A stretch of DNA of 64,000 nucleotides from a bacterium (GTDB lineage: Bacteria > UBA8248 > JACPRG01 > G963555815), in assembly GCA_965218795.1 (NCBI GenBank), contig OZ244653.1:2080001-2144000 (forward strand), given 5' to 3'. Positions within the stretch are counted from its first letter, which is position 1; every line of letters begins with the position of its first letter. The translations under genes and the position numbers were made by a program. Below are positions 12,871-49,981 of the stretch, one piece after another. The notes under the pieces were generated by a model. The model was not told the origin of the DNA, did no database searches, and was given only the letters and a program-made list of their open reading frames with translations.

Positions 12871-12969
12871 GATCCCTCCTCCTGGGCAAAGGAAATCCGA
12901 GATACCCGGATCGTTCGAGGACGCCTCGGTTGACTCGTCGGAAACTCCATCTGTATGATTTATGCATCG

Positions 12970-12998
12970 CTTGTACCCCATAGGAAACATGATGTCAA
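12970..12998 (-). promoter_or_regulatory. Putative sigma70 promoter for the SBP gene
   Basis: Minus strand TTGACA-17 bp-TACAAG. Confidence 0.55.
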
Positions 12999-13157
12999 CA
13001 ATATACGCAAGCCTCCCGACAAGGTCGGAAATCCGGCGCCATCGGGATGATTTGTTGACCGAATCTGCAACGAGATGGAGCGCGGCGATTCCATTCGTCA
13101 CAGGATTCGCTTCCAGCCTTCATGTTCATGGATCACTCGCGAGTGAGGAAATCCATC

Positions 13158-14162: not shown

Positions 14163-14488
14163 AGATGACCACCATGATGACCGGTTCATCGCCCGGGCTC
14201 TTCATACCGTGGGGGATACCGATGGGGGCGTGGCCGCAGTGTCCGGGACCGATTTCGACTGTCTGCTCTCCGAGAGTGGCCAGGGCCGTTCCCTGGATGA
14301 TATAGAACGTTTCCGAGCGGTCGTCGTGATGATGAAAGACAATCTCCCCGCGGGGGCGGATATTACTCACATGCAGGTTCAGGGCCGGATTGACGGCTTT
14401 CGTGATCACGGTCCGCGTCACGAAGTTGCTATGTTGGGGGGGGCGACAGATCTTCCTGGTCATCCAGATGAACAACGGTTCCTTCCAT
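14143..14488 (-). pseudogene. Cupin-domain protein with +1 frameshift in a G8 run
   Basis: AGGAG-ATG MEGTVVHLDDQEDLSPP stops after C8 (14436-14443); C7 would read into QHSNFVTR..HHHDDRSETFYIIQG..GIPHG. Confidence 0.75.
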
Positions 14489-14531
14489 GCTGATTCTCCT
14501 CTGCCAGGCACCCGTTGATTCCTTACACCCG

Positions 14532-14564
14532 TTGACAGATCGTTTCTTATCCGGTACAAACGAT
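14532..14564 (+). promoter_or_regulatory. Sigma70-like promoter overlapped by a palindromic operator
   Basis: TTGACA(14532)-17 bp-TACAAA(14555); ATCGTTT-N12-AAACGAT at 14539-14564. Confidence 0.65.
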
Positions 14565-14623
14565 TCTCCTTGAATACTAAGGACATATCAAGGACATGCC
14601 AAATGCGGGTATCGTGCGGGCCT

Positions 14624-15304
14624 ATGGAACCGGACAAGACTTCCCATATTGATCGGCAAATCGGGAGGATTGGCGAGCGGATCAGCCGCCTGCGCAAACA
14701 GGCGGGCCTGTCTCTTCGCGATCTGGCCGATCGGACCGGTGTCTCCTTCACGACCATTCAGAAAATCGAAACCAGTACAATCGTTCCTTCCATCGCGTCC
14801 GTCTTGAAAATTGCCCAAGGCCTGGGGAGGAATGTAAGCTACCTCTTGGACGAGGCGGAGAATCCGGGAGACATTCGTCTCGTTCGGCGTGCCGAGCGAA
14901 CCATAACGGACGTCTTCGCATCCAGGCTCCGCGTGGAAGACATCGGAATGGATTTGAGGGATGCACTCCTTCAGGCAACCGTACTGACCATCGAACCCGG
15001 CGGGATCAGCGGCACAGAACCGCTTCAACACCCGGGCGAAGAAATCAAACTTTGTTTGAAAGGAAGGATGGAATACCGGGTGGGGGCGGAGAACTTTCAA
15101 CTGGAGGAGGGAGACTGCCTGCATTTCAAATCCGATATCCCTCATTATTGGAAGAATCCGGGAAAAGAGAAGGCTGTGATCCTTTCGGTGTGCACGCCGC
15201 CTCCCTTCCCGACCGTGAGTAACCTGAGCACGAGTGCAGAGCGAGGCGGCAACCCGCGATCAGACCAGAACGGGATACGATGGGGGAAGGGCTCCATTGA
15301 CTGA
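14624..15304 (+). CDS. XRE-family HTH regulator with C-terminal cupin
   Basis: IGERISRLRKQAGLSLRDLADRTGVS..IQKIE..PSI; HPGEE..GDCLHFKSDIPH. Confidence 0.9.
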   Translation: MEPDKTSHIDRQIGRIGERISRLRKQAGLSLRDLADRTGVSFTTIQKIETSTIVPSIASVLKIAQGLGRNVSYLLDEAENPGDIRLVRRAERTITDVFASRLRVEDIGMDLRDALLQATVLTIEPGGISGTEPLQHPGEEIKLCLKGRMEYRVGAENFQLEEGDCLHFKSDIPHYWKNPGKEKAVILSVCTPPPFPTVSNLSTSAERGGNPRSDQNGIRWGKGSID

Positions 15305-16229
15305 AATCCGGAAGGTTGCTGTTCTCGGAACGGGAACCATGGGGAACGGCATCGCCTTGTGGTTCGCCAGGGCGGACCTCGAAGTACGGATGCGCGACCT
15401 GGACGCAAATCTTCTGGACCGCGCCCGGACAATGCAGGCCGATACGCTGAAAACCCTTGTCGCGGCCGGTACCGTTCCTCAGGAAGAAGAGGAAGCCATT
15501 CTCGGCCGCATCCACGGGACGACGGAGATGTCCGAGGCCCTGGAAGGGGCGGACTTTATCCTGGAGGCCGTCCCGGAAGTCCTCGACCTCAAGCAGAATG
15601 TCTTTGGCGAGATTGAAAAGCTGGCCCCGCCGGGCATTCCTCTGGCCTCCAACACTTCGGGAATCAGCATCTCCCGAATTGCCGAGGGGGTTCGGGACCC
15701 CTCCCGCGTAGTGGGCATGCACTGGTGGAACCCTCCCCACATGGTTCGGGTCATTGAGGTCGTTCGGGGTGAAAATTCTTCGGAGGCGGTGGTCCAGGCC
15801 ACCCGGGGCCTCGTCGCTCAGATCGGCAAACGGCCCGTCATGGTGAAAAAAGATTTGCCGGGTTTTCTGGGAAACCGCATCCTCTACGCCCTGCTCCGGG
15901 AAGCCGTGGATTGTTATGAGAAAGGGATTGCGGAGCCGGAGGACATCGACCTGATCGTGAGCGAAGCGTTCGCGCTGAAGCTGGCCTTCATGGGGCCGAT
16001 GGCCCTGTTGGATCTCGCAGGGATCGACATCTACCACGACGTATCAAAGTATCTTCATACGGATTTGTGCGACGCCAAGGAGGTCAGCCCCGCCATCGCT
16101 GAAAAAATCACAAAGAAAGAATTGGGGCTCAAAACGGGCAAGGGATTTTACGACTACAGCGACGTCGATATCCCCGAATTATTGAAAAAGCGCGGTCAGC
16201 AGATGGGGGGATTGCTCAAGATCATGTAG
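15297..16229 (+). CDS. 3-hydroxyacyl-CoA dehydrogenase family protein
   Basis: VAVLGTGTMGNGIA, EAVPEVLDLK, SNTS, GMHWWNPP, PGFLGNRI, LGLKTGKGFYDY; TTG start inferred. Confidence 0.92.
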   Translation: MTEIRKVAVLGTGTMGNGIALWFARADLEVRMRDLDANLLDRARTMQADTLKTLVAAGTVPQEEEEAILGRIHGTTEMSEALEGADFILEAVPEVLDLKQNVFGEIEKLAPPGIPLASNTSGISISRIAEGVRDPSRVVGMHWWNPPHMVRVIEVVRGENSSEAVVQATRGLVAQIGKRPVMVKKDLPGFLGNRILYALLREAVDCYEKGIAEPEDIDLIVSEAFALKLAFMGPMALLDLAGIDIYHDVSKYLHTDLCDAKEVSPAIAEKITKKELGLKTGKGFYDYSDVDIPELLKKRGQQMGGLLKIM

Positions 16230-16264
16230 CCCTTTTCTCAAGGGGCGAATCAGGGGACCGGCTC

Positions 16265-17143
16265 ATGGATGCAAATCCGAGAACACAAAACCCTTTCCGA
16301 TGGCCCGGAGATGCCCGGATTGCGATCAGCATTGTACTGAACGTGGAGGAATGGACGTCCGAAGGTCCATCGCCCCTCTACTTCCCCCTCCCGCCGGGCT
16401 CCAAGACAGCGCGGGATACCGCTACGGTCACCGACCACGATTACGGCTATCGCGCGGGGATTTGGAGATTGCTTGAAATCCTGGATCGGTATGAGGTGAA
16501 AACAACCGTCTGGACATCTGGTCTTGCAGCCGAACTCCATCCCACAGTGATCCGGCAGATGCACGACGCGGGCCATGAAATCGGGGGGCACGGGTATGAC
16601 AAATCATTCCCCTCGGTCCTGATGGACCGGGAGGAAGAGAAGGCCGATATCCAGAAAACCATCCGGGAGATTGAAAAGGCCACTCAAAAGGCGCCCATCG
16701 GGTGGATGTCTCCCAGCATGCGCTCAGGAGAGAACACCCTGCCGCTTCTCATTGACAACGGTTTCCTTTACCACAGCGATACGATTGGGCACGACCTGCC
16801 CTTCATGGACACCGTGGGGGATGACCGGTTGCTCGCGGTGCCGTATTCTTTGCTCAACAACGATTACCGGTTCTACAGTTACGGGGATCCTCCCTTGACC
16901 CCTGAGGAGGCCTTCGAATGGCTCAAAGGGGACTTCGACCAATTGTACGAGGAAGGAGAAACATTTCCCAAAATGATGAGCTACGGGATTCATCCATACG
17001 TGACCGGTCGGCCGGGCCGCGCGCGGAGCTTCGAGCGGTTCATCCGTTACGCGAAAGGATTCTCCGGCGTGTGGTTCGCCCGCAGGGATGAAATTGCGCG
17101 GTGGTGGCTGGAGAACAATCCGGACACCGGCCGGGAAGGATAG
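16265..17143 (+). CDS. Polysaccharide deacetylase family (PuuE-like) hydrolase
   Basis: WPGDARIAISIVLNVE, DYGYRAGIWRLL, HEIGGHGY, FDQLYEEG, GIHPYVTGRPGR. Confidence 0.88.
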   Translation: MDANPRTQNPFRWPGDARIAISIVLNVEEWTSEGPSPLYFPLPPGSKTARDTATVTDHDYGYRAGIWRLLEILDRYEVKTTVWTSGLAAELHPTVIRQMHDAGHEIGGHGYDKSFPSVLMDREEEKADIQKTIREIEKATQKAPIGWMSPSMRSGENTLPLLIDNGFLYHSDTIGHDLPFMDTVGDDRLLAVPYSLLNNDYRFYSYGDPPLTPEEAFEWLKGDFDQLYEEGETFPKMMSYGIHPYVTGRPGRARSFERFIRYAKGFSGVWFARRDEIARWWLENNPDTGREG

Positions 17144-17300
17144 AAAGCGGAAGACGCCCACTGGGCCTCGACGCGGGAAGTCGGGGTCGGGCAACGACTT
17201 CAAACGGAGGGCATTCGCCAAGTCGAACCCCTCCGGTGACTTCGTCCCAAATTCCAGCAAAAGAACAGTCACACAGATTTGAACATAGGGGAATGAAACG

Positions 17301-17807
17301 ATGGCGTCACCGAAGATCGATTTCCTCGATAACGGATGTCTCCACCTGGACAAACCCTTCATCACCTGGAACAAGCGCTTCACCCATGCCACGTTCCATG
17401 TCGACCGCGAGGAATTGAAGTCTGCCTATGTGCCCGAGTTTCAGGCCATCGGCTACTATCGGCCGTTCTTCGATTACGAAGGGATCCATTGGGGAGCTCA
17501 TGGTCGGCGACCTGCGAAGTGGTCAAGGGGGTCAAGATGCTCTCTTGCCCGGGACATTCGCCGGGCCCTTACTCTGTGGCCACCGACGCTCGACAGCCAT
17601 CTGATGATTCTCACCGTGGACACCACCTTCACCAAGGAAAACATGGAGCATAAAGTCCCGATGGGCATCCACGCCAACCTCTTCCAATTGGTCGAGAGCA
17701 TGGAGCGGCTGGAGCGCCTCACCCTGGCCGAGAAGGGCAAGCGCTACGTTTCGCACGATATGGAGGAGTTCAACACTTACAAAAAAGCGCCGGGTTACTG
17801 CGAGTAG
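17301..17807 (+). pseudogene. Degenerate metallo-beta-lactamase-fold (N-acyl homoserine lactonase-like) gene
   Basis: No HxHxDH (apparent internal deletion after ITWN); EVVKGVKMLSCPGHSPG lies in another frame; C-terminal VSHD retained. Confidence 0.7.
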
Positions 17808-17827
17808 GGGGCGAATAGGGCGAGGGC

Positions 17828-18661
17828 ATGTCGGCGATTCAGGAACACCGGGTCCGGGACGCGCAACCCGCGGCGGATACGGGACGGGACAGGATTATCG
17901 AGCTGAACGATGTCGCCGTGACTTATGAAGCCCGGCGGGGTGAGCCCTATACGGCGGTGGAGGGAATTGACCTCTTCGTGAACGAGCGGGAGTTCGTCTC
18001 GCTCATCGGCCCATCCGGCTGCGGGAAGAGCACCCTCCTCAAGGTGATTACAGGTCTGTTGGATCCCTCACGGGGACGGGTGACCGTCGCCGGGGGGGCT
18101 GCCCAAGAGGCCAGACGGCACCGACTCTTCGGGATTGTCTTTCAGGAGCCGACGCTCCTGCCCTGGCGGAACGTGCAAAAGAACACCGGCTTTTTGGTGG
18201 AGCTCATCCGGTTGATGGGAGCCGGCGGGACCTTCGGCGACCCCGAGGATCTGTTGCGGATGGTCGGGCTGGACGAATTCCGCCACAACTATCCGCGGGA
18301 GCTGTCGGGGGGGATGAAGCAGCGGGTTGCCATCGCACGAGCGCTCTCCATCGATCCGGCCATTCTGATGATGGATGAGCCCTTTGGGGCCCTTGACGCT
18401 ATGACCCGGGACAACATGAATGAAGAACTGCTGCGCATCTGGCGGCAGACCCAAAAGACGGTCGTGTTCATCACGCACAGCATTCGGGAATCCGTCTACC
18501 TCTCGGATACCGTGTATGTGATTGCGGGCAAGCCGGGCCGAATCGTGGAGCGGGTCCCGGTCGCCCTTCCGAGGCCCCGGCAGCCGGAGATTCAGACGAC
18601 GCCGGATTTTCAGCGCCACCTCGATCAATTGAGAACGCTTCTGGAGCGGGGACAGCGATGA
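17828..18661 (+). CDS. ABC ATP-binding protein (TauB/SsuB type)
   Basis: GPSGCGKST, VFQEPTLLPWR, LSGGMKQR, DEPFGALD, THS. Confidence 0.95.
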   Translation: MSAIQEHRVRDAQPAADTGRDRIIELNDVAVTYEARRGEPYTAVEGIDLFVNEREFVSLIGPSGCGKSTLLKVITGLLDPSRGRVTVAGGAAQEARRHRLFGIVFQEPTLLPWRNVQKNTGFLVELIRLMGAGGTFGDPEDLLRMVGLDEFRHNYPRELSGGMKQRVAIARALSIDPAILMMDEPFGALDAMTRDNMNEELLRIWRQTQKTVVFITHSIRESVYLSDTVYVIAGKPGRIVERVPVALPRPRQPEIQTTPDFQRHLDQLRTLLERGQR

Positions 18662-19443
18662 ATCACGGATTCCATGACAGGATCAGCAAATTCTGGCCAA
18701 CGGCTCTCACCGTCGTCGTCCTGGTTGCCCTCTGGGAGTGGGCCATCCACTTCTTCCAGGTCCCGAAGTGGTTCATTCCGGCTCCTTCGGCCGTTCTCCA
18801 GGACCTGATCATTTACGAGGGATTTTACGAGGATGCCTGGCTCACGACCCAGGAGATCCTGCTCGGATTCGTAATCGGCGACGTGCTCGCCGTGGCGATT
18901 GCCATTGCCGTGGTGTATTCCACGTTTGTTGAACGGACCCTGTATCCCATCGTGATCTTCTTCCAGAACATTCCGAAGATCACACTGGCCCCCATTATGC
19001 TGTTATGGTTCGGGCTGGGGCTTGGAACCCGCGTCGCCATCGTCATTCTGATCTCGTTTTTCCCCGTGATTATCAACACGATTTATGGACTTCGATCGAC
19101 TGACCCGAACCTGATCGATCTGGCTCGGTCGGTCGCGGTCTCCCGTTGGGTGATCCTGCGCAAAATTCAGATCCCCCATGCCCTGCCCTACATGTTCGAG
19201 GGATTCAAAATCGCGATGACCTTTGCTGTCATCGGCGCATTCGTGGCCGAATGGATTTCCGGCAGCAACGGACTCGGCTATCAAATTCGCGTCGCGTCGT
19301 CCGACATGGAATCCGCAGCCCTGTTCGGAGCGGTAGCGGTCATTTCCGTTGTGGGCGTGATCCTTTACTATCTGGTTTCTCTGGCTGGAAGGAGGCTCTT
19401 TCCCTGGCACGAATCCGCCCGGGAAGGGGGTCCGATGGTGTAA
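18658..19443 (+). CDS. ABC permease (TauC/SsuC type)
   Basis: PAPSAV, QNIPKITLAP, FFPVIINT, IPHALPY..AEWI; ATGA overlap. Confidence 0.93.
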   Translation: MNHGFHDRISKFWPTALTVVVLVALWEWAIHFFQVPKWFIPAPSAVLQDLIIYEGFYEDAWLTTQEILLGFVIGDVLAVAIAIAVVYSTFVERTLYPIVIFFQNIPKITLAPIMLLWFGLGLGTRVAIVILISFFPVIINTIYGLRSTDPNLIDLARSVAVSRWVILRKIQIPHALPYMFEGFKIAMTFAVIGAFVAEWISGSNGLGYQIRVASSDMESAALFGAVAVISVVGVILYYLVSLAGRRLFPWHESAREGGPMV

Positions 19444-19472
19444 GAGGTTTTTCAAACAAAGGAGGAAGGGAC

Positions 19473-20471
19473 GTGAAAGAGAAAAGTGCTCGATGGGGAA
19501 TATGGGTGGTCTTGGCCGTGGCGCTGACGCTCATCGCCGGCCCCGCCGCTGCCGCCGACAGCGTCAAGGTCCGCCTCGACTGGGTCTTGCGAGGCAATCA
19601 CGCCATGTTTCACGTGGCCAAGGAGAAAGGCTATTTCAAGCAGAACGGAATCGACGTGACGAAGATCGATCCGGGTAACGGTTCCCAGCGGACCATGAAG
19701 TTCGTGGGCGGGGGGCAATATCCTTTCGGCTACGGTGATCTGCCCACGCTCGCCGCGGCCAAGAGCCAAGGGGTGCCCGTCACTTCGCTGACGGTCGTGA
19801 ACCAGCTCAGTCCCATGTCCATCGTCACGCTCGCCGATTCCGGAATCCAATCGCCGCAGGATATCGAGGGACGAAAGTTCGGTGTATTCCCCGCCGGATC
19901 GACCCACATTTTCTATAAGGCCTTCATGAAGATGGTGGGTGTCGATCGGAGCAAGGTGACGGAGGTCACGGTCAGTTTCCCCTACGAGAGCTATCTACTG
20001 ACCAAGAAGGTGGACGCGGTCGTCGGATATCTCGATGCCGAGATTCCGATTCTCAAGATGAAGGCCAACATCCGCATCATGCAGGGCGCCAAGTACGGCT
20101 ACAAGGGCTACGGCAGCGGGATGCTCGCGGCGGATGAGGTGATCAAGGAAAATCCGGACCTGGTTCGCAGGTTCACGAAATCCTACATCCAGGGCTTTGT
20201 CGCCGTCATCAAGGACCCCGGCGGAGCCGTCGATATCCTGGCCAAGTACCAGAAGAAGGCTCCCAAGAAAATCTGGCGCGCACAGCTTCAGGCGGATATC
20301 GATTCTTCGTTCATGAACGAGATCACGAAGAAAAACGGGCTCGGTTGGCAGACCTTCGACCGGTGGAAAGAAACCCAGCAGATCCTGGCGGACCAGGGCG
20401 TCATCAAGAATCCGGTGGATCCGAACTCTCTGTTCTCCAACAAGTTCCTGGCCGGGTCGCCGAAGATGTAA
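19473..20471 (+). CDS. ABC substrate-binding protein, NMT1/THI5-like
   Basis: GTG after AAGGAGG; signal peptide; VRLDWVLRGNHAMFHVAKEKGYFK..PGNGS. Confidence 0.9.
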   Translation: MKEKSARWGIWVVLAVALTLIAGPAAAADSVKVRLDWVLRGNHAMFHVAKEKGYFKQNGIDVTKIDPGNGSQRTMKFVGGGQYPFGYGDLPTLAAAKSQGVPVTSLTVVNQLSPMSIVTLADSGIQSPQDIEGRKFGVFPAGSTHIFYKAFMKMVGVDRSKVTEVTVSFPYESYLLTKKVDAVVGYLDAEIPILKMKANIRIMQGAKYGYKGYGSGMLAADEVIKENPDLVRRFTKSYIQGFVAVIKDPGGAVDILAKYQKKAPKKIWRAQLQADIDSSFMNEITKKNGLGWQTFDRWKETQQILADQGVIKNPVDPNSLFSNKFLAGSPKM

Positions 20472-20522
20472 CGCGGAGGAACCCGCTCGCCCTGGTCAAC
20501 AAGATAAGGTCAAAGCGCGCCT

Positions 20523-21956
20523 ATGCCATATGAAGACCTGAGACATTTCATCGAGGACCTGGAGGAGCATAACCTCTTCCGGTGGGTCGACGCCGAAGTC
20601 GAGAAAGATTGGGAGATCAGCGCGGTCACCCGGACGTATTTCCGCCGCGTCCCCAAGGAGGTTCGCGGCGCCCTGGGCTATCGCAATATCAAGGGGTACC
20701 CGGGACAGCGACTGGTGGTCGGTACCGTCGGCGGAGGGATCAGGGTCTACAACAAGGCTCTCGGCATCGAGGGCGGATTCGACGCGGTCAACGAAAAATG
20801 GCGGGAGGCGCTGACCAACCCCATACCGGGCAAGAGGACGAACGGAAAGGCTCCGTGCCAGGAAGTCGTTCTAAGCGGTGAGGAAGCCGATCTCAACCGG
20901 TTCCCCATTCCGACCTGGACGCCGGAAAAGGATCCCGGCCCCTTCCTGACCTCCGCCTGCCTCGTCACCAAGGAGCGGGATACCGGGGTCCTGAACGTCG
21001 GGGTGTACCGCATGGAGGTCAAAGGGCCGCGCAAGACCGGCGTTCTTTGGGACCTACCGAGCCAGCACGGGGCCGTCCACTTCACAAAATACGAGGAAGC
21101 GGGCGAACCCATGCCCATGGCGGTCGTCCTCGGGGTGGAACCCACCATCCTGATGGGCGCGGTGGCCAAGGCCCCCATGGGCTATGACGAGTTCGCCGTA
21201 GCCGGCGGGCTGCGGGGCGCTCCGGTGGACCTGGTCAAATGCAAGACGATCGACCTGGACGTCCCGGCCCGGGCGGAGATTGTTCTCGAAGGCCATGTGC
21301 CCCCCAACATTCGGGAGCGGGAGGGACCTTTCGGCGAGTACACTGGGTACATGGGCGGGCCGTACGAGATGGTCGTTTTCGAGATCGACTGCATCACGCA
21401 CCGCGCGGATGCGCTCAACCAAGCGTTCTTCAGCCAGATGCCGCCGAGCGAATCGAGCCTGATCCGCGCCATCCCCGAGGAGGCTCATATCTATAAGCAC
21501 CTGGCTCAGGATCTGCGCATTCCGGGCATCGTGGACGTCCACCTGCCCGAAGCCGGCGGGAGTTATTCAATCTGCTGGGTCCAAATGAAACAGTCCTATC
21601 CGGGTCAGGCGCAGCAGGTGCTCTCGGCCGCATGGACGCATCATCCCGCCTTTGCCAAGTGGATCGTCGTCACCGATGAGGACGTGGATATCCGGGATCC
21701 TTTTCAGCGGGAATGGGCGCTGGCCTGGCGGGTCCAGCCGCATCGGGACATGTTCACGATTCCGAACACGGCCCCGGTCCTGTTGGATCCGTCCGCGGGC
21801 CATCACGGGGAAGACCTGTGGGAGAGACGAAGCTCGAAGATGCTGATAGACGCCACGAAGCCGTGGCTTGATTTCCCGGACGTCTCTCTCCCGCCCCGGA
21901 AGTTCCTGGACCGGGCGGCCGACCAGTGGGACAAGTACGGTTTGACCGACGGATAA
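20523..21956 (+). CDS. UbiD family decarboxylase
   Basis: YEDLRHFI, LNVGVYR, EGPFGEYTGY, PPSES, KWIVVTDEDVD, LDPS, KMLIDATKP. Confidence 0.94.
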   Translation: MPYEDLRHFIEDLEEHNLFRWVDAEVEKDWEISAVTRTYFRRVPKEVRGALGYRNIKGYPGQRLVVGTVGGGIRVYNKALGIEGGFDAVNEKWREALTNPIPGKRTNGKAPCQEVVLSGEEADLNRFPIPTWTPEKDPGPFLTSACLVTKERDTGVLNVGVYRMEVKGPRKTGVLWDLPSQHGAVHFTKYEEAGEPMPMAVVLGVEPTILMGAVAKAPMGYDEFAVAGGLRGAPVDLVKCKTIDLDVPARAEIVLEGHVPPNIREREGPFGEYTGYMGGPYEMVVFEIDCITHRADALNQAFFSQMPPSESSLIRAIPEEAHIYKHLAQDLRIPGIVDVHLPEAGGSYSICWVQMKQSYPGQAQQVLSAAWTHHPAFAKWIVVTDEDVDIRDPFQREWALAWRVQPHRDMFTIPNTAPVLLDPSAGHHGEDLWERRSSKMLIDATKPWLDFPDVSLPPRKFLDRAADQWDKYGLTDG

Positions 21957-21976
21957 TGCCGAATGGGAGGAACTCC

Positions 21977-22975
21977 ATGATTTCCGAATCCACACTCATC
22001 AAAGGCGGGCTGCTCATCGTCGAGAAGTGCATGCACGTGGAGGAAGGGGAGAAGGTGGTCATCCTGTACGACGAAGATCACGACCGCCATGCCAAGGTGC
22101 TCTCAGGCCTCTGTTTTGCGCGGGGCGCGTTCCCTGCCATGATCGACATGACCCCCTACGTGACGGCCGGCCAAGCGGACACCGGCTATCCCATGGCTCC
22201 GCCCGATCACATTGCAAAGGCTATCGTCGACGCCAACGTGACGATCATCTACACCAACCTGGAATGGGCCAACCGGTTCGCCCACGTTCCGTGCGTCAAG
22301 GAGACGGTGGACGCGAACCACCGCATCGCCTCCATCGAAGAGGGGATGGACTGCTGGGTTCTTTCCGACGAGGATATCTTGACCGTCTCCAAGCGGTGCA
22401 GCGACCTGGGCGAACTGGCCAAAGGCGCGAAAGCCATCCGGGTGACCTCTCCCGCGGGCACCGACCTCTACGTCTCCATTGAAAACCGGCCGGCCCTGGT
22501 CCTCCCCCCGGTCAAGCAGAACGGGATCATGATGTCTCCCATCCCACTCTGGACCGAGGTGGCCTGGGCCTGTGTGGAGGACAAGACCGAGGGACGCGTC
22601 GTTGTGGACGGCATTCAATTGGGCATCGGCATGCCGGGCACTTTACCGAATTCGATCGAATGGATCGTCAAGGACGGAAAAGCGGTCGAGATCAACGGGG
22701 GTGCGGAAGCAAAGGCCCTCGAGAAGACCATATCGGGGGTGGAGAACGTCGAGATCATCGGCGAAGTAGGGGTCGGGATCAGCGACAAACCACCCTCCGG
22801 CGGACCTTCCGAAAAGGGAAAACTGGGGACGGCGCACTTTGCCCTCGGCGACAACTGCCACGCGTATCCCGGCGGCCAGAACGACTGCAGGCTTCATCTG
22901 GACGGGTCTGTCCGCAACTGCACCTTCATGGTCGATGACACCGTCGTCGTCGAAAATGGGGAATGGAAGCTGTAG
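21977..22975 (+). CDS. Peptidase M29 / NicX-fold metalloenzyme
   Basis: GEKVVILYD, IRVTSPAGTDL, TEVAW, GRVVVDG, GEVGVG, HFALGDN, HLDG. Confidence 0.78.
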   Translation: MISESTLIKGGLLIVEKCMHVEEGEKVVILYDEDHDRHAKVLSGLCFARGAFPAMIDMTPYVTAGQADTGYPMAPPDHIAKAIVDANVTIIYTNLEWANRFAHVPCVKETVDANHRIASIEEGMDCWVLSDEDILTVSKRCSDLGELAKGAKAIRVTSPAGTDLYVSIENRPALVLPPVKQNGIMMSPIPLWTEVAWACVEDKTEGRVVVDGIQLGIGMPGTLPNSIEWIVKDGKAVEINGGAEAKALEKTISGVENVEIIGEVGVGISDKPPSGGPSEKGKLGTAHFALGDNCHAYPGGQNDCRLHLDGSVRNCTFMVDDTVVVENGEWKL

Positions 22976-23029
22976 GATGGAGCCCTCGGAGCCGGACGGT
23001 TTCGCGAGTCTTGAGGGCGGAAAGAGTTC

Positions 23030-23923
23030 ATGAAACCTTTTGAATATCATTCGCCGGATACCGTTGAGGAGGCCGTTGGGCTGCTGCGCAACTACGGCGA
23101 GGACGCGAAGCTTTATGCCGGCGGGACCTCCCTGCTCTTTCTCATGAAGGAGGGGTTCTTCTCCCCCGAGCAGGTCATCAACCTGAAGCGGATCGGCGGG
23201 CTGAACGCCATTGAGGCGGAAACCGTGGACGGGGTGGAGCGGATTCGGGTCGGAGCGATGGCGACCCACCGCTCGCTGGAGTTCTCCGAACTGCTCAAGG
23301 AAAAAATCCCGATCATTCCGCACATGGAGTCGGACTTGGCGAATGTCCGGGTGCGCAACGTCGGCACCCTCGGCGGTAGCCTGGCCTTCGCCGAACCCCA
23401 GTCCGATCCCCCTTCCCTCCTCATAGCCCTGGGCGCGCAGGCGCGGGTCACCGGCCCCGACGGGGAACGGACGCTCGACGTGGATTCCCTCTACGTCGGC
23501 TATTACGAAACAGTCCTCAAACCGGAAGAAATGATGACCCAGGTGTCGATCCCGGTTCCGGCCCCGGAATTGGGCTGCTCTTACCAGAAATTCTGCCAGC
23601 GTACGGCCACGGACAAGCCGACGGTCTGCGCGGCGGTTTGTCTCAGCATTCAGGACGGGACGGTGGAGGACGTACGGATTGTTTTGGGCGCTGTGGGACC
23701 GACCCCCATCCGCGCCAAGGCGACCGAATCCCTGGTCCGAGGGAACCGACTGCGGAACGGGGCATTCCCGGAAGAGCTTCTGGAGGAGGCGGCCCGACAG
23801 GCGGCCGAGGAGATCGATCCCCAAAGCGATGTGTACGGGTCCGGCTGGTACAAGCGGGACGTCGCGCAGGTCCTGCTGAAGCGCGGCCTGGTCGAGGCCC
23901 TGGCCGAAGCCGTCCGGACCTGA
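23030..23923 (+). CDS. Xanthine dehydrogenase family FAD-binding subunit
   Basis: MKPFEYHSP, AGGTSL, RNVGTLGGSL..P.SD, C-terminal DVYGSGWYKR. Confidence 0.93.
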   Translation: MKPFEYHSPDTVEEAVGLLRNYGEDAKLYAGGTSLLFLMKEGFFSPEQVINLKRIGGLNAIEAETVDGVERIRVGAMATHRSLEFSELLKEKIPIIPHMESDLANVRVRNVGTLGGSLAFAEPQSDPPSLLIALGAQARVTGPDGERTLDVDSLYVGYYETVLKPEEMMTQVSIPVPAPELGCSYQKFCQRTATDKPTVCAAVCLSIQDGTVEDVRIVLGAVGPTPIRAKATESLVRGNRLRNGAFPEELLEEAARQAAEEIDPQSDVYGSGWYKRDVAQVLLKRGLVEALAEAVRT

Positions 23924-24519
23924 TGGAGACATCATCCATGAAACCCGAAAAACGTATCCTCCGCCTGACGGTGAACGGCTCAAGGGTCGAGGTGGCGGCC
24001 GAGCCCCGGAGGCTCTTGCTGGACCTTCTCCGCGACGACCTCGGTCTGACGGGGCTGAAGAAGGCCTGTGACATTCAGGTGTGCGGTTCGTGCACGGTTC
24101 TGGTGAACGGCGCGGCGGTCAGCGCCTGCACGTCTCTGGCCTTCGACGCCGAAGGTGCGGAGGTCGTCACCATCGAGGGTCTCTCCGAGAACGGGCGGCT
24201 GGACATCCTGCAGCGGGCCTTCATTCAATACGGAGCCATTCAGTGCGGGTACTGCATCCCGGGCATGATCATGATGGCCCGGTCACTGCTCAACGAGAAT
24301 CCGAGCCCGAGCGAGGACGAAATCCGGCTCTACATGTCCGGGAACCTATGCCGGTGCACGGGCTACAAAAAGATTGTCGAGGCCATCCGGGCCGCGGCTG
24401 GGGGAGACGTGACGTTTGAAACGCCGGTCCTGGACTTCTCTCCCTCCGCGGAGGATGAAGAGGAAGAAGCCCTCTCGCTGGGAACGTTTCGCGTCAGTGA
24501 ATCATCGGCCGGTCCTTGA
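23923..24519 (+). CDS. Xanthine dehydrogenase family [2Fe-2S] subunit
   Basis: CDIQVCGSC..C and QCGYC..GNLCRCTGY; TGATG coupling. Confidence 0.94.
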   Translation: METSSMKPEKRILRLTVNGSRVEVAAEPRRLLLDLLRDDLGLTGLKKACDIQVCGSCTVLVNGAAVSACTSLAFDAEGAEVVTIEGLSENGRLDILQRAFIQYGAIQCGYCIPGMIMMARSLLNENPSPSEDEIRLYMSGNLCRCTGYKKIVEAIRAAAGGDVTFETPVLDFSPSAEDEEEEALSLGTFRVSESSAGP

Positions 24520-24549
24520 GAGAACCGAAGCGCTCATGAGGTGAGAACC

Positions 24550-26847
24550 ATGGCGGACGCCCTCCACGTCGTGGGCAAGCGGCTTCCCAAGCTGGACGCC
24601 CTGCCCAAGGCCACCGGAGAAATCGAATATCTCGCAGACCTGAAATTCCCGGGCATGCTCCAGGGCGCGATCTTGAGAAGTCCCCACCCTCACGCGCGAA
24701 TCGTGAGCATCGATACCAATGCGGCGGAACGTCTGCCCGGCGTGCGCTCGGTGATCACCTCCCAAGACACGCCCGAGAAGAAATTCTCGTTCGTGGAATA
24801 CCTGGCCGACAAGTTGATCATGGCCAAGGACAAAGTCCGCTATATCGGCGACGAGGTGGCGGGGGTCGCCGCCGTCGACGAGGAGACGGCCCAGGAGGCC
24901 GCGCGCCTCATCCGGGTCGAATACGAGGAGCTTCCGGCCGTCTACGAGGTTGACGACGCGATGAAACCGGACGCGCCCCTCATTCATGAGGACAAGGGCT
25001 CCAACGTCGCGTTCGAGATCCACCGAAAGTTCGGCGATCCCGACCGGGGCTTTGCCGAGTCCGACGAAGTCTTCGAAGACCGGTTCGAGACGCAGCGCGT
25101 GGCCCATGCCCCAATGGAGACCCGCGGCTGCGTGGCCCGGTTCGATCGGTCCGGACGATTGACGGTCTGGGCCCCGAGTCAGGCTCCCCATACCCAGAGA
25201 AACGAAATCGCAAAATCCCTCCGCATCGCGCCGGCGCGTGTGCGGCTCTGCAAGCTCCCGACCGGCGGGGCCTTCGGGAACCGGCTGGTCATGGACATGG
25301 CGTGTCCGATCGCCGCCATCCTATCCGCCAAGACGGGCCAGGCCGTCAAGATCGTCAACACCCGCCAGGAAGAGTTCGAGACGAGCAAGACCCGCTATCG
25401 CTATCTCATCGATATGAAGACGGGGGTGAAGAAGGACGGCCGGATTCACGCGCGGGCGGCCCGGGTGATCGCCGACAACGGCGCCTATAACGACAAAGCC
25501 CCCGCCACCTTGAGCTTCTCTGGATCGATGTTCTGCCTGATCTACGACGTCGAGCACCTCCAGTATGACGGTTACGCCGTCTACACCAACCGGCAGTACG
25601 GAACGGGTTTTCGAGGCTTCGGCAACCCGCAGGTGACCTTCGCCCACGAGCATCAGGTGGACCTCGTCGCCCGGCGCCTCGGCATGGACCCGTTGGAGTT
25701 CCGTCGGAAGAACGCGAATCAGCCCGGCAAAACCCGGGCCGTCGGAGCCAACATGAAGGTCATGGACATGACGGAATGCCTGGATCGGGCGGCCACCGCC
25801 ATCGGGTGGGAGGAAAAACGCAAGGCGTATGAGCAGCGCGATCCGAGGAAACCCTGGCGGGGGATCGGCATCGCCACGATGGTCCATACCGCGGGCGGGA
25901 ACCGGTTCTACGGGTACAACGCGGCCTCCTCCGTGGTGAAGGTGTCCGAAGACGGGCTGGTGACGCTGGTGACCCCGGCCTGCGACGTGGGCCAGGGCGC
26001 GCAAACCATCGTCGCGCAGATCTGCGCGGAGGAACTCGGCGTCACCCTGGATGACGTGGTGGTGATCTCGGACGATACGGACCTTACGCCCTATGACCTG
26101 GGTTCGTGGGGGAGCCGGGTGACCTGGGTCGTCGGCCAGGCCGCTCAGGTGGCCGCGCGGAACGCCCGGCAGCAGATCTTCGAGGCCGTAGCGGCCGAGC
26201 TCGAGGTCTCCCCGGACGATCTGGTGTCGGAGGAAGGGTGGATCGGTGTGCGTGGCGCTCCGGACAAGGGGATGTCCTTCCCCTCGGCCGTCGACCTCAG
26301 TTTCAAGAAACGGGGGCGGCCCATTCAAGCGGAGGGAAAATTCGTGGACGAAGTCGCCCCCGAGTCCATGGACTGGGACACCCAGAGCCCCAACTTCGCA
26401 TCGGCGGCCCACGCGGTCGAGGTGGAAGTCGATCCGGACACGGGCAAAGTCCGCGTTCTCGATTTCAAGGCCGCTCACGGAATCGGTCTCGCCATCAATC
26501 CCATGGCCGCCGAGGGACAGATCGAGGGAAGCGTCTCGCAGGGCGTAGGTTTCGGCCTGATGGAAGAACTGATCATGGACGGGGGCAAGGCCATCAATCC
26601 GAATTTTGCCGACTACAAAATCCCGAGCTTCCTGGACCTGCCCCGGGTGGATGCCATCCTTGTGGAAAACGCGGACCCCGATGGCCCCTTCGGCGCCGCG
26701 GGCATTGGCGAACCAGGGCTGGTCCCGACTGCGGCGGCGGTCGCCAATGCCGTCGCCCACGCCACGGGCTGCCACTTCCGAACCCTCCCGGTTACGGCGG
26801 AAAAAATTCTAAAAGCGCTCAAAGAAAAGCGGGGAGAACCGGGCTGA
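24550..26847 (+). CDS. Xanthine dehydrogenase family Mo-binding large subunit (L1)
   Basis: RSPHPHA, HAPME, GGAFG, FRGFGNPQ, GQG, GQIEG, GIGE. Confidence 0.94.
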   Translation: MADALHVVGKRLPKLDALPKATGEIEYLADLKFPGMLQGAILRSPHPHARIVSIDTNAAERLPGVRSVITSQDTPEKKFSFVEYLADKLIMAKDKVRYIGDEVAGVAAVDEETAQEAARLIRVEYEELPAVYEVDDAMKPDAPLIHEDKGSNVAFEIHRKFGDPDRGFAESDEVFEDRFETQRVAHAPMETRGCVARFDRSGRLTVWAPSQAPHTQRNEIAKSLRIAPARVRLCKLPTGGAFGNRLVMDMACPIAAILSAKTGQAVKIVNTRQEEFETSKTRYRYLIDMKTGVKKDGRIHARAARVIADNGAYNDKAPATLSFSGSMFCLIYDVEHLQYDGYAVYTNRQYGTGFRGFGNPQVTFAHEHQVDLVARRLGMDPLEFRRKNANQPGKTRAVGANMKVMDMTECLDRAATAIGWEEKRKAYEQRDPRKPWRGIGIATMVHTAGGNRFYGYNAASSVVKVSEDGLVTLVTPACDVGQGAQTIVAQICAEELGVTLDDVVVISDDTDLTPYDLGSWGSRVTWVVGQAAQVAARNARQQIFEAVAAELEVSPDDLVSEEGWIGVRGAPDKGMSFPSAVDLSFKKRGRPIQAEGKFVDEVAPESMDWDTQSPNFASAAHAVEVEVDPDTGKVRVLDFKAAHGIGLAINPMAAEGQIEGSVSQGVGFGLMEELIMDGGKAINPNFADYKIPSFLDLPRVDAILVENADPDGPFGAAGIGEPGLVPTAAAVANAVAHATGCHFRTLPVTAEKILKALKEKRGEPG

Positions 26848-26938
26848 TTACCGGTCCCCGCCCGTCATAGACCGGAAACCGTCGATCGCCGGACCGGAGG
26901 ACCGGGTCCGGCTCCCCCAAGCCTCGGGAGATTGTTCC

Positions 26939-27946
26939 ATGGCAGACAAACTTGAATTCGGCGTCAACGTCAACACACGCGCCCCCATCATCTATCCGGA
27001 ACACTACAAACCCTCCGACATGTTCGATCTGGCCGAGGAGGCCGAAAACCTGGGCTTTGACGGCGTATGGTCAGCCGACAATTTCTTTGAGAAAGCACGC
27101 GTTGAGTCCACGATCACGCTCGGCGGGATCGCGGCGCGGACACAGAAGGTCAAGATCAGCACGTCGTCTTTCATTTTCACCACCCGGAACGTCGTTTGGA
27201 TGGCCCTCACCTGGGCGAGTCTGGATCAGGTCTCCAACGGGAGGATGATCATGACGGTCTGCGTGGGCGGAGGCAGCCCCGAGGCCGGGGGGATACGTCC
27301 CAACGCGCAATACCATTACCTCGGAATCCCCTTCAACAAGCGCGGCGCATACATGGAAGAGCAGATCAAGCTGATCCGCCGTATCTGGCTGGAAAAAGAG
27401 GTGACCAACGAGAGCGATCTGCCTCTTCATACGATGGAAGGGATTCAGGTGGACGTCCGGCCCATTCAAAAACCGATACCCATCTGGATCTCCAACAACC
27501 CGCAAATCTTCAACGTCAAGGGCAAGCTCCTGGAGCGGATGATGCGGCGGGTCGGAGAGCTGGCGGACGGATGGCAGACCTGCACCGCCACCCGGCGGGA
27601 GTACAAAGAGCTTTTCGATATGGTGAAGGGCTACGCCAAGGCCGCGGGCCGGGACCCCAATGAACTCACGGGGGGGTATCATTTGACATGCGGCGTTCGT
27701 GAGGATCCGGTGCAGGCCCGGCAGGAGGCCCTCGAGTTTCTCAACAAGTACTACGTCACGGAATTCACCGACCTCTCGCAATCCATGTGGAACCGTGACG
27801 CCTTCGGAACGCCCGATGACGTGATCCGGAAGATCGAGGATCTGGCCGAGGCCGGCTGCACGAATTTCTGCGCCCGATTTGCCACCACGGACCAGTTCGG
27901 CCAGTTGCGCATGTTCGCGGAGAAGGTCCTCCCCCGGTACAAGTGA
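26939..27946 (+). CDS. LLM-class flavin-dependent oxidoreductase
   Basis: AEEAENLGFDGVW, LDQVSNGR, RPIQKPIPIWI, ADGW, GTPDDV. Confidence 0.9.
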   Translation: MADKLEFGVNVNTRAPIIYPEHYKPSDMFDLAEEAENLGFDGVWSADNFFEKARVESTITLGGIAARTQKVKISTSSFIFTTRNVVWMALTWASLDQVSNGRMIMTVCVGGGSPEAGGIRPNAQYHYLGIPFNKRGAYMEEQIKLIRRIWLEKEVTNESDLPLHTMEGIQVDVRPIQKPIPIWISNNPQIFNVKGKLLERMMRRVGELADGWQTCTATRREYKELFDMVKGYAKAAGRDPNELTGGYHLTCGVREDPVQARQEALEFLNKYYVTEFTDLSQSMWNRDAFGTPDDVIRKIEDLAEAGCTNFCARFATTDQFGQLRMFAEKVLPRYK

Positions 27947-28082
27947 TTCTCTGGATTGAACGGCGGAACGCCGGGTCTTCACCCAATTCAATGAAATGGG
28001 TGAATCGAAGGCAGGCCCGTCCGGGGAATCGCCTGCGGCTTATCTCATCCATCCTTCAACCCCCCATTGGGAGGATCGGCCA

Positions 28083-28472
28083 ATGGACAAACAAGTCATT
28101 GTGACCGACAAGGCGGCGCCCCCCGTGGGGCCTTACTCGCTGGGCATCAAAACAGGCAATTTGCTGTTCATATCCGGCTCGGTCGGTTGGGATAAGGATG
28201 AGAAGAACGTCGGGGTTGGGGACGTCAAGGCTCAGACCCGGCAGGCCTTTGAGAACATCCGATCCGTCGTCGAGGCCGCGGGCGGCACGATGGAGAACAT
28301 CGTCAAGGTCACGGTCTACCTGACCGATGCCGATGACTACCCCGCAATGAACGAAGTGCGGGCGGAGGTGTTCCCGAAAGATCCGCCGACGAGTACGGCC
28401 TTTGTCGTCAAGCGTCTGATTCCACCCGATTGCTGCGTGGAGATCGAGGCTGTCGCCGCAATTCAGGAGTAG
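28083..28472 (+). CDS. RidA family enamine/imine deaminase
   Basis: PVGPYS, LFISG, QTRQAFENI, VKVTVYL, VEIEAVA; reads PTST where active RidA has PARS. Confidence 0.88.
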   Translation: MDKQVIVTDKAAPPVGPYSLGIKTGNLLFISGSVGWDKDEKNVGVGDVKAQTRQAFENIRSVVEAAGGTMENIVKVTVYLTDADDYPAMNEVRAEVFPKDPPTSTAFVVKRLIPPDCCVEIEAVAAIQE

Positions 28473-35328: not shown

Positions 35329-35567
35329 GCCGGTTTCCCGATCGAAAATTCCCGCCCCCAGACCGCATTTTTTGCTGGAAGTCAAAACAAAGTTCGAGTA
35401 GAGTAACGACTTCAAATACTTTCGCCTTGGAGTCATACGGGTTGATGTGTGTGGTCTTGGCATCAAGGACGTATTCCGCCCGAGATAAGCAACGGCGGCA
35501 GACACGAGGCCCGATCCTCAGGGGGGGCCTCCCTGGAGACGGATATCCAGCAAAAAGGAGGGTACGG

Positions 35568-49746: not shown

Positions 49747-49981
49747 CTTTGTCCTCGCTTCAGTCGCTCTCAGTTTTTGTGTCCGTTCACACGGAGGAGA
49801 CGGACGCACTGGATCCAGACACTCCAATCCTCTGACGATTCGAACGTCCGGGTCCGAATTCGGCCAGAAGACCTACATCAGAACGTCATGATTCATCGGC
49901 GATTCGGTATCGACGTTTCCCGCATCTTTTCCTTCAGACCCCGGTGCCGTCTCGCAAATCAGCCCACAACGAAGACTGAGG

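Follow-up and report, generated by a model that had tools for sequence, protein, structure and literature searches.

A UbiD-type operon within a widespread NicX-family and molybdenum-hydroxylase gene module whose sister branch is tied to vitamin B6 catabolism

Known pathways and the operon

To our knowledge, bacterial catabolism of vitamin B6 is genetically known from essentially one pathway, that of the Mesorhizobium loti type. The enzymes of this degradation pathway I have been listed for M. loti and Pseudomonas MA-1, and the corresponding family names were confirmed through NCBIfam models. Other described routes for heteroaromatic acids include the nic and pic pathways of Pseudomonas putida and Alcaligenes faecalis, the anaerobic fermentation of nicotinate by Eubacterium barkeri, which employs a molybdenum/selenium (Mo/Se) nicotinate dehydrogenase, 6-hydroxynicotinate reductase and enamidase and no decarboxylase, and the 5-hydroxymethylfurfural (HMF)/furoate pathway of Cupriavidus basilensis, encoded by hmfABCDE and hmfFGH. 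Here, we analyse a 14-gene operon at positions 14570-28472, on the + strand, of a 64,000-nucleotide stretch of DNA (hereafter, the window; G000:C1:2080001-2144000) from the 5.17 Mb, single-contig genome of a sponge-associated bacterium. The operon is the UbiD-type branch of a widespread, uncharacterised module that combines a NicX-family protein with a Mo-hydroxylase, and the sister branch of this module is tied to vitamin B6 catabolism. It is highly probable that the genes belong together as one operon that serves the breakdown of an N-heteroaromatic acid. Our proposal for the acid itself, a vitamin-B6-type pyridine carboxylate, with 4-pyridoxate or some close analogue that the host or its community releases as the most likely candidate, is tentative and held with slightly less than even confidence.

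The operon resembles the M. loti pathway in encoding an enzyme similar to 5-formyl-3-hydroxy-2-methylpyridine-4-carboxylate 5-dehydrogenase (FHMPC DH), in a pyridoxolactonase-like gene, decayed here, and in a predicted decarboxylation that follows a pyridine dicarboxylate; in the sister clusters, the likeness extends to a pyridoxal 4-dehydrogenase equivalog and a class II aldolase-type decarboxylase. Unlike the M. loti pathway, the 14 genes include no GMC-type 4-pyridoxate dehydrogenase, no FAD-dependent 2-methyl-3-hydroxypyridine-5-carboxylate (MHPC) oxygenase and no alpha/beta-fold acetamidomethylene-succinate hydrolase. Instead, the operon has a three-subunit Mo-hydroxylase, a NicX-family protein and a luciferase-like (LLM) oxidoreductase, its decarboxylase is a UbiD rather than a class II aldolase, and its dehydrogenase stays below the equivalog cut-off (318 of 500 bits). 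With the nic and pic pathways it shares a Mo-dependent step that hydroxylates a pyridine acid, a decarboxylation and, at the ring-opening position, an enzyme of the NicX fold, whereas it differs from them in that Glu and Ala replace His265 and Ser302 of NicX, in that the 14 genes lack the NicD, NicF and NicE families (deformylase, maleamate amidase and maleate isomerase), in that the decarboxylase is a UbiD, and in that homologous clusters reside in metagenome-assembled genomes (MAGs) labelled as anaerobes.

The logic that we favour for the module is like that of E. barkeri, namely, Mo hydroxylation with water-derived oxygen, ring reduction, by a PreA-like protein in anaerobe-type loci and possibly by an F420-dependent LLM here, and ring opening by a metallohydrolase. 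The parts are different, however: NicX/M29 would stand in for the amidohydrolase-fold enamidase and a PreA-like protein or LLM for the E. barkeri reductase, only the large Mo-hydroxylase subunit, XdhL, matches the E. barkeri Mo subunits, distantly (3HRD), and a decarboxylase, UbiD, is present here where that pathway has none. The HMF/furoate pathway, finally, is comparable in combining a UbiD acting on a heteroaromatic dicarboxylate with a three-subunit hydroxylase of the xanthine dehydrogenase (XDH) family, and its HmfF is the best solved relative of the window UbiD, but the operon lacks CoA ligase and hydratase genes and consists throughout of families linked to nitrogen heterocycles.

The original prediction for this locus knew of no characterised pathway that unites these parts, and our survey agrees with this: among the matches listed from open-access papers and preprints, there was no characterised cluster that unites UbiD with NicX. 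Open-access papers and preprints likewise yielded no cluster of aminopeptidase T, XDH and LLM, and no bacterial route of B6 catabolism other than the M. loti type. The accessible part of a preprint on B6 catabolites (10.64898/2026.01.20.700305) describes pyridoxal dehydrogenase and lactonase activities only and contains no Mo, UbiD or NicX cluster.

A module conserved across phyla

The NicX-like protein, the product of the rarest gene of the operon, has 1248 homologues at E<=1e-3, which carry the precomputed Pfam tag PF26233, named NicX in the protein atlas. When species-representative genomes were scanned with A1, an alignment of 24 homologues, 343 stretches encoding a relative of this protein were recovered, which suggests a second, widespread solution to B6 catabolism. 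We analysed the best 80 loci, which come from Thermomicrobiales and other Chloroflexota, Gaiellales, Thermoleophilia, Desulfobacterales-type MAGs, Spirochaetes, SAR324, Bacillota and others, by tblastn with window or sister-locus proteins; because many of these loci are truncated, the counts for the window proteins are lower bounds. Homologues of the Mo-hydroxylase subunits and of the LLM recur in most loci (XdhS in 64, XdhL in 62, LLM in 56 and XdhM in 53), followed by the dehydrogenase (41), UbiD and the metallo-beta-lactamase-fold (MBL) protein (15 each), the regulator (4), the PuuE-like protein (1) and RidA (0). Additional genes of these loci encode a small cupin (74), a class II aldolase (57), a GntR regulator (50), a lactonase-like MBL protein (37), a pyridoxal-4-dehydrogenase-like short-chain dehydrogenase/reductase (SDR; 27), a Zn-dependent alcohol dehydrogenase (Zn-ADH; 25), CoxG (22), a PreA-like protein (10) and an aldehyde:ferredoxin oxidoreductase (AOR; 9), with PreA-like and LLM genes together in none of the 80. 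As many as 23 of the 27 SDRs are at least 59% identical to the protein of locus L106, the one that was scanned and scored as an equivalog.

Two types of cluster can be told apart. The commoner one, type (a), has the order GntR/FCD regulator, LLM, NicX-like protein, 124-aa cupin, class II aldolase, XdhM, XdhS, XdhL, FHMPC-DH-like dehydrogenase and CoxG, to which a lactonase-like MBL protein, the pyridoxal-4-dehydrogenase-like SDR, Zn-ADH and a Bmp-type ABC system are often added. In type (b), the UbiD type, an XRE-cupin regulator, an FAD subunit, a ferredoxin, a tungsten-type AOR and a PreA-like Fe-S flavoprotein precede UbiD, dehydrogenase, NicX-like protein, cupin, XdhM, XdhS, XdhL and a Bmp ABC system. 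The window proteins are 58-63% (UbiD) and 50-55% (XdhL) identical to those of type (b), whereas XdhL is only 31-36% identical to its aldolase-type counterparts; across phyla, the cluster-linked UbiD orthologues thus stand nearer to the window protein than any of its in-genome paralogues (at most 46%). Homologues of the regulator, 44-46% identical, lie upstream of three UbiD-type clusters (L060, L074 and L078). In a quick IQ-TREE tree of the NicX-like proteins with a midpoint root, clades of 18 and 63 rows are each recovered with an SH-aLRT of 99; the former comprises the window lineage and all UbiD/PreA loci, and in MAGs with the labels Desulfobacterales, Syntrophomonadaceae and Spirochaetes, its members share their clusters with AOR and a PreA-like Fe-S reductase. 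The window cluster is a UbiD-type cluster with an LLM and an NMT1 ABC system. The window cluster lacks the small cupin, AOR and PreA-like protein, and a sister-locus class II aldolase as tblastn query gave no match in the window at E<=10. The lower pathway of the module would comprise the Mo-hydroxylase, the NicX-family metalloenzyme and the small cupin, served by two interchangeable types of decarboxylase, class II aldolase and UbiD.

Closer to home, NicX-like orthologues (86-88% identity) were found only in G003, G004 and G006, all of the same family, among 61 genomes (that of the window and 60 relatives); a genome of the same genus, 93% complete, had no match. In G004, a member of another genus, the order is dehydrogenase, ABC ATPase, permease, binding protein, UbiD, NicX-like protein, XdhM, XdhS, XdhL and LLM, and nucleotide synteny at 74-78% covers 15298-16227, 17892-20476 and 20523-27936; taken singly, the ABC ATPase is 78%, the permease 87% and the LLM 72.5% identical. 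Given that the regulator, PuuE-like gene, MBL remnant and RidA fall outside this synteny, the conserved core consists of 10 genes, from the dehydrogenase through the LLM, and the PuuE-like gene, lactonase remnant and RidA are lineage-specific accessory genes. The arrangement is more than chance, as judged from the synteny with G004 and the recurrence of the NicX-like, Xdh, dehydrogenase and UbiD genes in other phyla. The original prediction was to be abandoned if its gene order was not conserved elsewhere; it survives, because the order holds in G004 and the association of UbiD, NicX-like protein and Xdh in other phyla. Its view of a UbiD decarboxylase, a three-subunit Mo-hydroxylase and a NicX-fold protein as the core of a conserved gene set for an N-heteroaromatic acid is likewise supported, whereas the deacetylase that it cast as a deformylase and RidA, which match 1 and 0 of the 80 loci, respectively, and are both missing in G004, are not conserved parts of the module.

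Two variants were seen among the close relatives. G004 carries the segment from the NicX-like gene to the LLM twice (L036/L037, on contigs C7 and C5), with identical tblastn statistics, which is either a true duplication or an assembly repeat. Locus L033 (G003:C23:3000-22000) encodes four NicX-family paralogues, three of them consecutive and all 26-29% identical to the window protein, that flank an XdhS-L-M set near ABC ATPases, a further variant of the pairing of NicX-like proteins with Mo-hydroxylases.

Substrate and chemistry

From the observed family assignments and synteny, we infer the following steps. The ThiY/THI5-like ABC system would import the acid, and the FHMPC-DH-like enzyme, perhaps together with the F420-type LLM, would oxidise a hydroxymethyl or formyl group of the ring to a second carboxylate. 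UbiD, with prenylated FMN (prFMN) from the single UbiX of the genome, would then remove one carboxyl, in place of the class II aldolase-type decarboxylase of the commoner sister cluster and of the M. loti pathway. The three-subunit Mo-hydroxylase would either introduce oxygen from water beside the nitrogen of the ring or oxidise a ring aldehyde, and the NicX-family metalloenzyme would open the ring, in our view more probably by a hydrolytic, O2-independent reaction. In this lineage, the PuuE-like hydrolase and RidA may clear amide and enamine products; the XRE-cupin protein is the predicted regulator of the operon.

The original prediction had left the substrate blank, which need not remain so in view of the FHMPC-DH-like dehydrogenase, the pyridoxolactonase remnant and the B6 genes of the sister clusters. 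The dehydrogenase, at first labelled a 3-hydroxyacyl-CoA dehydrogenase, does have the 3HCDH fold, but the specific family closest to it is another one: its best NCBIfam match is FHMPC_DH, with 317.9 bits (cut-off 500) vs 230.1 for the next, generic 3-hydroxyacyl-CoA dehydrogenase model, and its best PDB match is an FHMPC DH, 4OM8, with 248 bits vs 186 for the next. The MBL-fold gene, recognised from the start as decayed, scores 57.1 bits on the NCBIfam 4-pyridoxolactonase model, over profile positions 200-266 of 268 (AttM, 38.4). It aligns to residues 6-47 and 89-253 of an intact 256-aa homologue from locus L108, that is, with an internal deletion, and its translation contains no HxHxDH motif. 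In a whole-genome profile search, this remnant was the best match of the genome to the 4-pyridoxolactonase model (44 bits), with no intact 4-pyridoxolactonase elsewhere in the genome; nor does any protein of the genome exceed the pyridoxal 4-dehydrogenase cut-off of 325, the best SDR scoring 220.8 bits, so that the M. loti-type pair of lactonase and pyridoxal 4-dehydrogenase is lacking. Because the lactonase is decayed and pyridoxal 4-dehydrogenase is missing, the gene content suggests entry at a pyridoxate-type acid rather than at pyridoxal or pyridoxolactone.

In type (a) loci, the B6 signals are stronger: the SDR qualifies as a pyridoxal 4-dehydrogenase equivalog (330.9 bits; cut-off 325), the MBL protein scores 278.9 bits on 4-pyridoxolactonase (cut-off 325) and the dehydrogenase 443.5 bits on FHMPC DH (cut-off 500). 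The class II aldolase of these loci belongs to what we take to be the family of the dicarboxylate decarboxylase of the B6 pathway. The best PDB match of the window's binding protein is ThiY (3IX1), which binds N-formyl-4-amino-5-aminomethyl-2-methylpyrimidine (FAMP), followed by 4NMY and THI5, a protein that uses pyridoxal 5'-phosphate (PLP) as a substrate.

The window UbiD scores 313.5 bits on TIGR00148, over the cut-off of 244.85, and this score, three UbiD Pfam domains and the presence of one UbiX in the genome (222.9 bits; cut-off 108.9) mark it as a putative prFMN-dependent decarboxylase of the UbiD family. Similarly, the joint encoding of FAD, 2x[2Fe-2S] and Mo-cofactor subunits points to a three-subunit Mo-hydroxylase of the XDH family, which could act either on the ring position beside the nitrogen, by hydroxylation, or on a ring aldehyde, by oxidation. 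The best NCBIfam match of XdhL is the alpha subunit of 4-hydroxybenzoyl-CoA reductase (653.4 bits; cut-off 994.55; best PDB match, 1RM6), and XdhM matches the beta subunit with 97.4 bits in two stretches (cut-off 404.55), so that neither is an equivalog; a reductive dehydroxylation of the kind carried out by that enzyme was set aside because the beta subunit is far from the equivalog. The LLM is most similar to F420-dependent classes, both among NCBIfam models (TIGR03619, 110.5 bits; cut-off 166.9) and in the PDB (F420-dependent Mer and F420 alcohol dehydrogenase), and since cofD and cofH score above cut-off, the genome makes F420. The second hydroxylase that the LLM was originally proposed to be is therefore doubtful, and a role as a dehydrogenase or reductase fits better.

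The NicX-like protein, single-copy in the genome apart from one further weak match (27.4 bits), is a member of the NicX family by fold and Pfam, yet lacks half of the NicX iron ligands. The AF2 model (pLDDT 93.3) has NicX structures as its top Foldseek matches (7CN3/7CUP; E 1.9e-23, TM 0.79), with M29 peptidases at TM 0.62-0.68, and together with the PF26233 tag this establishes the overall NicX fold; the Pfam M29 score of 27.7 bits is barely over the cut-off of 27, with no stretch passing alone. According to PMC7910607, NicX binds Fe(II) through His265, Ser302, His318 and Asp320 and its substrate through His105, Glu177 and His189. HMMER alignments show that 2 of the 4 Fe ligands are kept in the window family, as the invariant H-x-D pair matching His318 and Asp320, whereas His265 is replaced by Glu and Ser302 by Ala. 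The substrate binders Glu177 and His189 are replaced by Leu and Pro in a loop aligned with low confidence; His103 is invariant, and NicX His105 falls outside the aligned stretch. An extra invariant His lies two residues ahead of the Ser302 position, and the family's Glu263, at the position of NicX His265, aligns with Glu319 of PepS. With the PepS metal ligand set and the mapping of His287 as we assume them, and the M29 site taken to be a two-metal Glu/Glu/His/His/Asp site, the extra invariant His287 and Glu263 look like the metal site of M29 hydrolases, the ancestral M29 type. We thus favour hydrolytic over dioxygenative ring opening because of this apparently M29-like metal site and because the clade lies beside O2-sensitive enzyme types in anaerobe-labelled MAGs; a hydrolytic, O2-independent reaction appears somewhat probable and a NicX-type dioxygenation doubtful. 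Of the M29/NicX-fold dioxygenase originally proposed, the fold stands and the dioxygenase role is doubtful.

The best-surviving alternative, although an unlikely one, is an aerobic route in the style of nicotinate or picolinate catabolism for a pyridine, pyrazine or pyrimidine acid, in which the Mo enzyme would perform the first hydroxylation, the LLM the second, UbiD the decarboxylation, the M29/NicX protein an Fe(II)-dependent dioxygenation and the PuuE-like protein the deformylation. The NicX fold and family membership and the invariant H-x-D pair accord with it, as does an LLM in an organism that may be aerobic, and hydroxylation of a 3-hydroxypyridine next to the nitrogen would yield a substrate of the 2,5-dihydroxypyridine type. 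These affinities are offset, however, by the replaced iron and substrate ligands, by the hydrolase-like His287 (its mapping presumed) and Glu263, by the AOR and PreA-like genes that accompany the clade in MAGs labelled as anaerobes, by the F420 enzymes among the best LLM matches and by the near absence of the PuuE-like gene from the 80 loci.

Slightly less probable as a substrate is a substituted pyrimidine, derived from thiamine or otherwise, such as hydroxymethylpyrimidine (HMP) or FAMP, whose 5-hydroxymethyl group would be oxidised to a carboxylate and removed by UbiD, with ring hydroxylation by the Mo enzyme and opening by reduction and hydrolysis. The binding protein is indeed nearest to the FAMP-binding ThiY, but the dehydrogenase and the lactonase remnant indicate pyridines derived from pyridoxal, and the reference enzyme of the NicX family works on a pyridine, according to PMC7910607. 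Anaerobe-type loci carry a PreA-like dihydropyrimidine-dehydrogenase subunit (243 bits; cut-off 335) as well as nucleoside-like binding proteins of the Bmp type. Cyclic ureides are substrates of the PuuE-like family and RidA scores 101.9 bits on RutC (below the cut-off of 169.1; on TIGR00004 it reaches 111.1, over 106.25), but neither gene is conserved in the module, and no RutA match, and hence no Rut pathway, was found among the best 25 of 31 LLM matches.

Alternatively, the genes might not form one pathway at all but two or three units that have nothing to do with each other, for instance, transporter plus UbiD and Xdh plus LLM, brought together by chance in a genome crowded with paralogues. 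The crowding is real: the 5.17 Mb genome has 41 UbiD matches with only one UbiX, 73 MoCoBD_1 matches, equivalent to about 70 large subunits of the XDH/carbon monoxide dehydrogenase family, and 71 NMT1 matches, in addition to 33 RidA and 20 LLM homologues by tblastn, and UbiD and Mo-hydroxylases are recurrently paired, with an Xdh-subunit homologue within 8 kb at 19 of 39 UbiD loci. No publication dealing with an expansion of UbiD in the symbionts of sponges came up in a literature search. The PuuE-like gene, RidA, MBL remnant and regulator are, moreover, non-syntenic in G004. We nevertheless regard a mosaic as improbable, because the block from dehydrogenase to LLM is intact in another genus, because several other phyla have the genes for UbiD, dehydrogenase, NicX-like protein and XdhMSL side by side in this order, preceded by a regulator of the same family, because the NicX-like gene is single-copy, and because an RNA-library contig (20302-20555) spans from the binding protein into UbiD, of which it covers 33 bases. 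A furan or pyrrole dicarboxylate, handled in the style of HMF and 2,5-furandicarboxylic acid (FDCA) by aldehyde or alcohol oxidation, an HmfF-like UbiD and HmfABC-like Mo hydroxylation, is very improbable: UbiD has HmfF (6H6V, 219.5 bits) as its best solved relative and XdhL is nearest to the 4-hydroxybenzoyl-CoA reductase group, which includes furoyl-CoA dehydrogenase, but E. coli UbiD scores nearly equally (208 bits), no CoA ligase or enoyl-CoA hydratase is found among the 14 genes, and the NicX-family protein, FHMPC-DH-like enzyme, lactonase remnant, ThiY-like binding protein and RidA all indicate nitrogen heterocycles.

The reading that we prefer, a single operon for a B6-type pyridine carboxylate, has several observations against it, too. 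No window protein reaches the equivalog cut-off for any B6 enzyme, with the dehydrogenase at 318 of 500 bits and the lactonase a remnant, and the pyridoxal dehydrogenase, intact lactonase and class II aldolase occur only in the other clade of the module. Given this distribution and the low XdhL identity between the two types, the UbiD-type clusters may act on a different, related substrate. The nearest solved relative of the binding protein takes a thiamine pyrimidine, not B6. The window LLM is 30-37% identical to that of type (a) and maybe not equivalent to it, one in-genome XdhL paralogue is, at 55% identity, as near as the cross-phylum proteins, and the window lineage is set off by a long branch (1.32) in what is a quick, midpoint-rooted tree. 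The stock of paralogues in the genome (about 70 large subunits of Mo-hydroxylases and 41 UbiD matches) makes it easy for one of them to be recruited, and family names say little about specificity. Transcription is weakly indicated: short contigs from two metatranscriptome libraries (X19 and X20) match, with 0-3 differences, the genes for the binding protein, UbiD, XdhM, XdhS, XdhL and LLM, and DNA may have been carried over into the RNA libraries; the contigs cover the operon in part, and the uncovered parts are no evidence of silence. Near-identical operon DNA occurs in many sequencing runs, some with a sponge metagenome label. Scans for promoters and terminators gave 4 and 13 sites, no more than in shuffled sequences.

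A bolder extension of the B6 reading, which as a whole we consider unlikely, is that the NicX-like protein, instead of being a dioxygenase, opens the ring by hydrolysis in an O2-independent route for B6-type pyridines (water-dependent Mo-hydroxylation, reduction of the ring by a PreA-like protein or F420-LLM, then hydrolysis), a route common to anaerobes and aerobes in many phyla, with prFMN-UbiD as a new pyridine-dicarboxylate decarboxylase in one branch. If ring opening proves to be hydrolytic, this would be new chemistry of anaerobic pyridine degradation. The proposal offers testable substrates for the orphan NicX/M29 branch, for one of many orphan UbiDs and for one of the roughly 70 orphan Mo-hydroxylases of a sponge-associated genome.

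Gene inventory and surroundings

All 14 open reading frames (ORFs) within the operon are co-oriented, with intergenic spacing of -4 to 157 bases, and, in agreement with the labels first given to them, Pfam and NCBIfam scans return the families listed in the table. Probable starts were set by in-frame start codons and ribosome-binding motifs, and by frame-breaking indels in a 95-99% related strain.

Table. Genes of the operon, with probable coordinates in the window and supporting family matches
Feature	Position	Strand	Family match
XRE HTH + cupin regulator, PuuR-like architecture	14603..15304 (ORF from 14570)	+	Pfam HTH_3, Cupin_2
3HCDH-fold NAD-dependent dehydrogenase, FHMPC-DH-like	15297..16229 (ORF 15234-16229)	+	Pfam 3HCDH_N, 3HCDH
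PuuE-like polysaccharide deacetylase family protein (cyclic-amide or N-acyl hydrolase)	16265..17143	+	Pfam Polysacc_deac_1
4-pyridoxolactonase-like MBL-fold remnant, 168 aa, pseudogene	17301..17807	+	NCBIfam 4-pyridoxolactonase; no Pfam match
ABC transporter ATPase	17828..18661	+	Pfam ABC_tran
ABC transporter permease	18658..19443	+	Pfam BPD_transp_1
NMT1/ThiY-type substrate-binding protein	19473..20471 (ORF 19146-20471)	+	Pfam NMT1 148.7 bits
UbiD-family prFMN-dependent decarboxylase	20523..21956	+	Pfam UbiD, UbiD_C, UbiD_N
NicX-family (M29-related) metalloenzyme, 332 aa	21977..22975 (ORF 21926-22975)	+	Pfam M29 E 1.5e-6; PF26233 'NicX' tag
Mo-hydroxylase FAD-binding (medium) subunit XdhM	23030..23923	+	Pfam FAD_binding_5, CO_deh_flav_C
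Mo-hydroxylase [2Fe-2S] (small) subunit XdhS	23923..24519 (ORF 23638-24519)	+	Pfam Fer2, Fer2_2 at ORF residues 111-251
Mo-hydroxylase molybdopterin-binding (large) subunit XdhL	24541..26847	+	Pfam Ald_Xan_dh_C, MoCoBD_1, MoCoBD_2
Luciferase-like (LLM) oxidoreductase, probably F420-dependent	26939..27946	+	Pfam Bac_luciferase
RidA-family enamine/imine deaminase	27996..28472	+	Pfam Ribonuc_L-PSP

The regulator ORF opens with TTG at 14570 and has in-frame ATGs at 14603 and 14624; a start later than 14570 is favoured by a 1-base insertion at 14583 in the related strain. The dehydrogenase probably starts at TTG 15297, preceded by the motif GGGGGAAGGG, and the binding protein at GTG 19473, preceded by AAAGGAGG. 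The database version of the NicX-like protein (P0001) begins at ATG 21977, and the XdhS ORF has in-frame ATGs at 23923 and 23938. Because the related strain has a 1-base deletion at 24546, XdhL may start at 24550 or 24571; for RidA, frame-breaking indels at 28010-28058 in that strain favour the second ATG, at 28083, which is preceded by GGGAGGA. In run X15 (sponge metagenome label), contigs of a 95-99% related strain cover hardly any or none of the segment 17238-18305, with the lactonase remnant and the beginning of the ABC ATPase gene; this segment may vary between strains, although contigs cannot prove absence. The regulator scores 73.6 bits on the PuuR model, far below the cut-off of 211, and the PuuE-like protein, with 203.2 bits on PuuE allantoinase (cut-off 424.6) and PDB matches 1Z7A and 3CL6, is not an equivalog of that enzyme.

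Upstream of the operon lie a second NMT1 binding protein (11848-13101, minus strand), an O-methyltransferase (13122-14162) and a cupin (14143-14757, minus strand). They were not counted as operon members, being non-syntenic in G004, and the minus-strand cupin was also rejected as the small cupin of the sister clusters (non-significant, E 0.15). Outside the operon, the window also encodes two additional UbiD proteins, four additional large subunits of Mo-hydroxylases and one additional NMT1 binding protein (354-1763, 37326-38765, 39477-41759, 43415-45673, 56575-59022, 60062-62278 and 35427-36593), as well as hydantoinase B/A genes (45812-47608 and 47668-49827) and a class III aminotransferase (41985-43280), and looks like an island of N-heterocycle catabolic genes. 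Elsewhere in the genome, a paralogous set around C1:1802131-1807240 comprises an LLM (46% identity, as the in-genome paralogue of the window LLM), a UbiD (35%), an XdhM (37%) and an XdhS (49%), and a weak, distant NicX/M29-like match at G000:C1:2754739-2755308 adjoins another UbiD (~C1:2752386) and several XdhL genes. At G000:C1:963621-964310, one gene for a Mo-hydroxylase large subunit is apparently split into three frame-shifted pieces.

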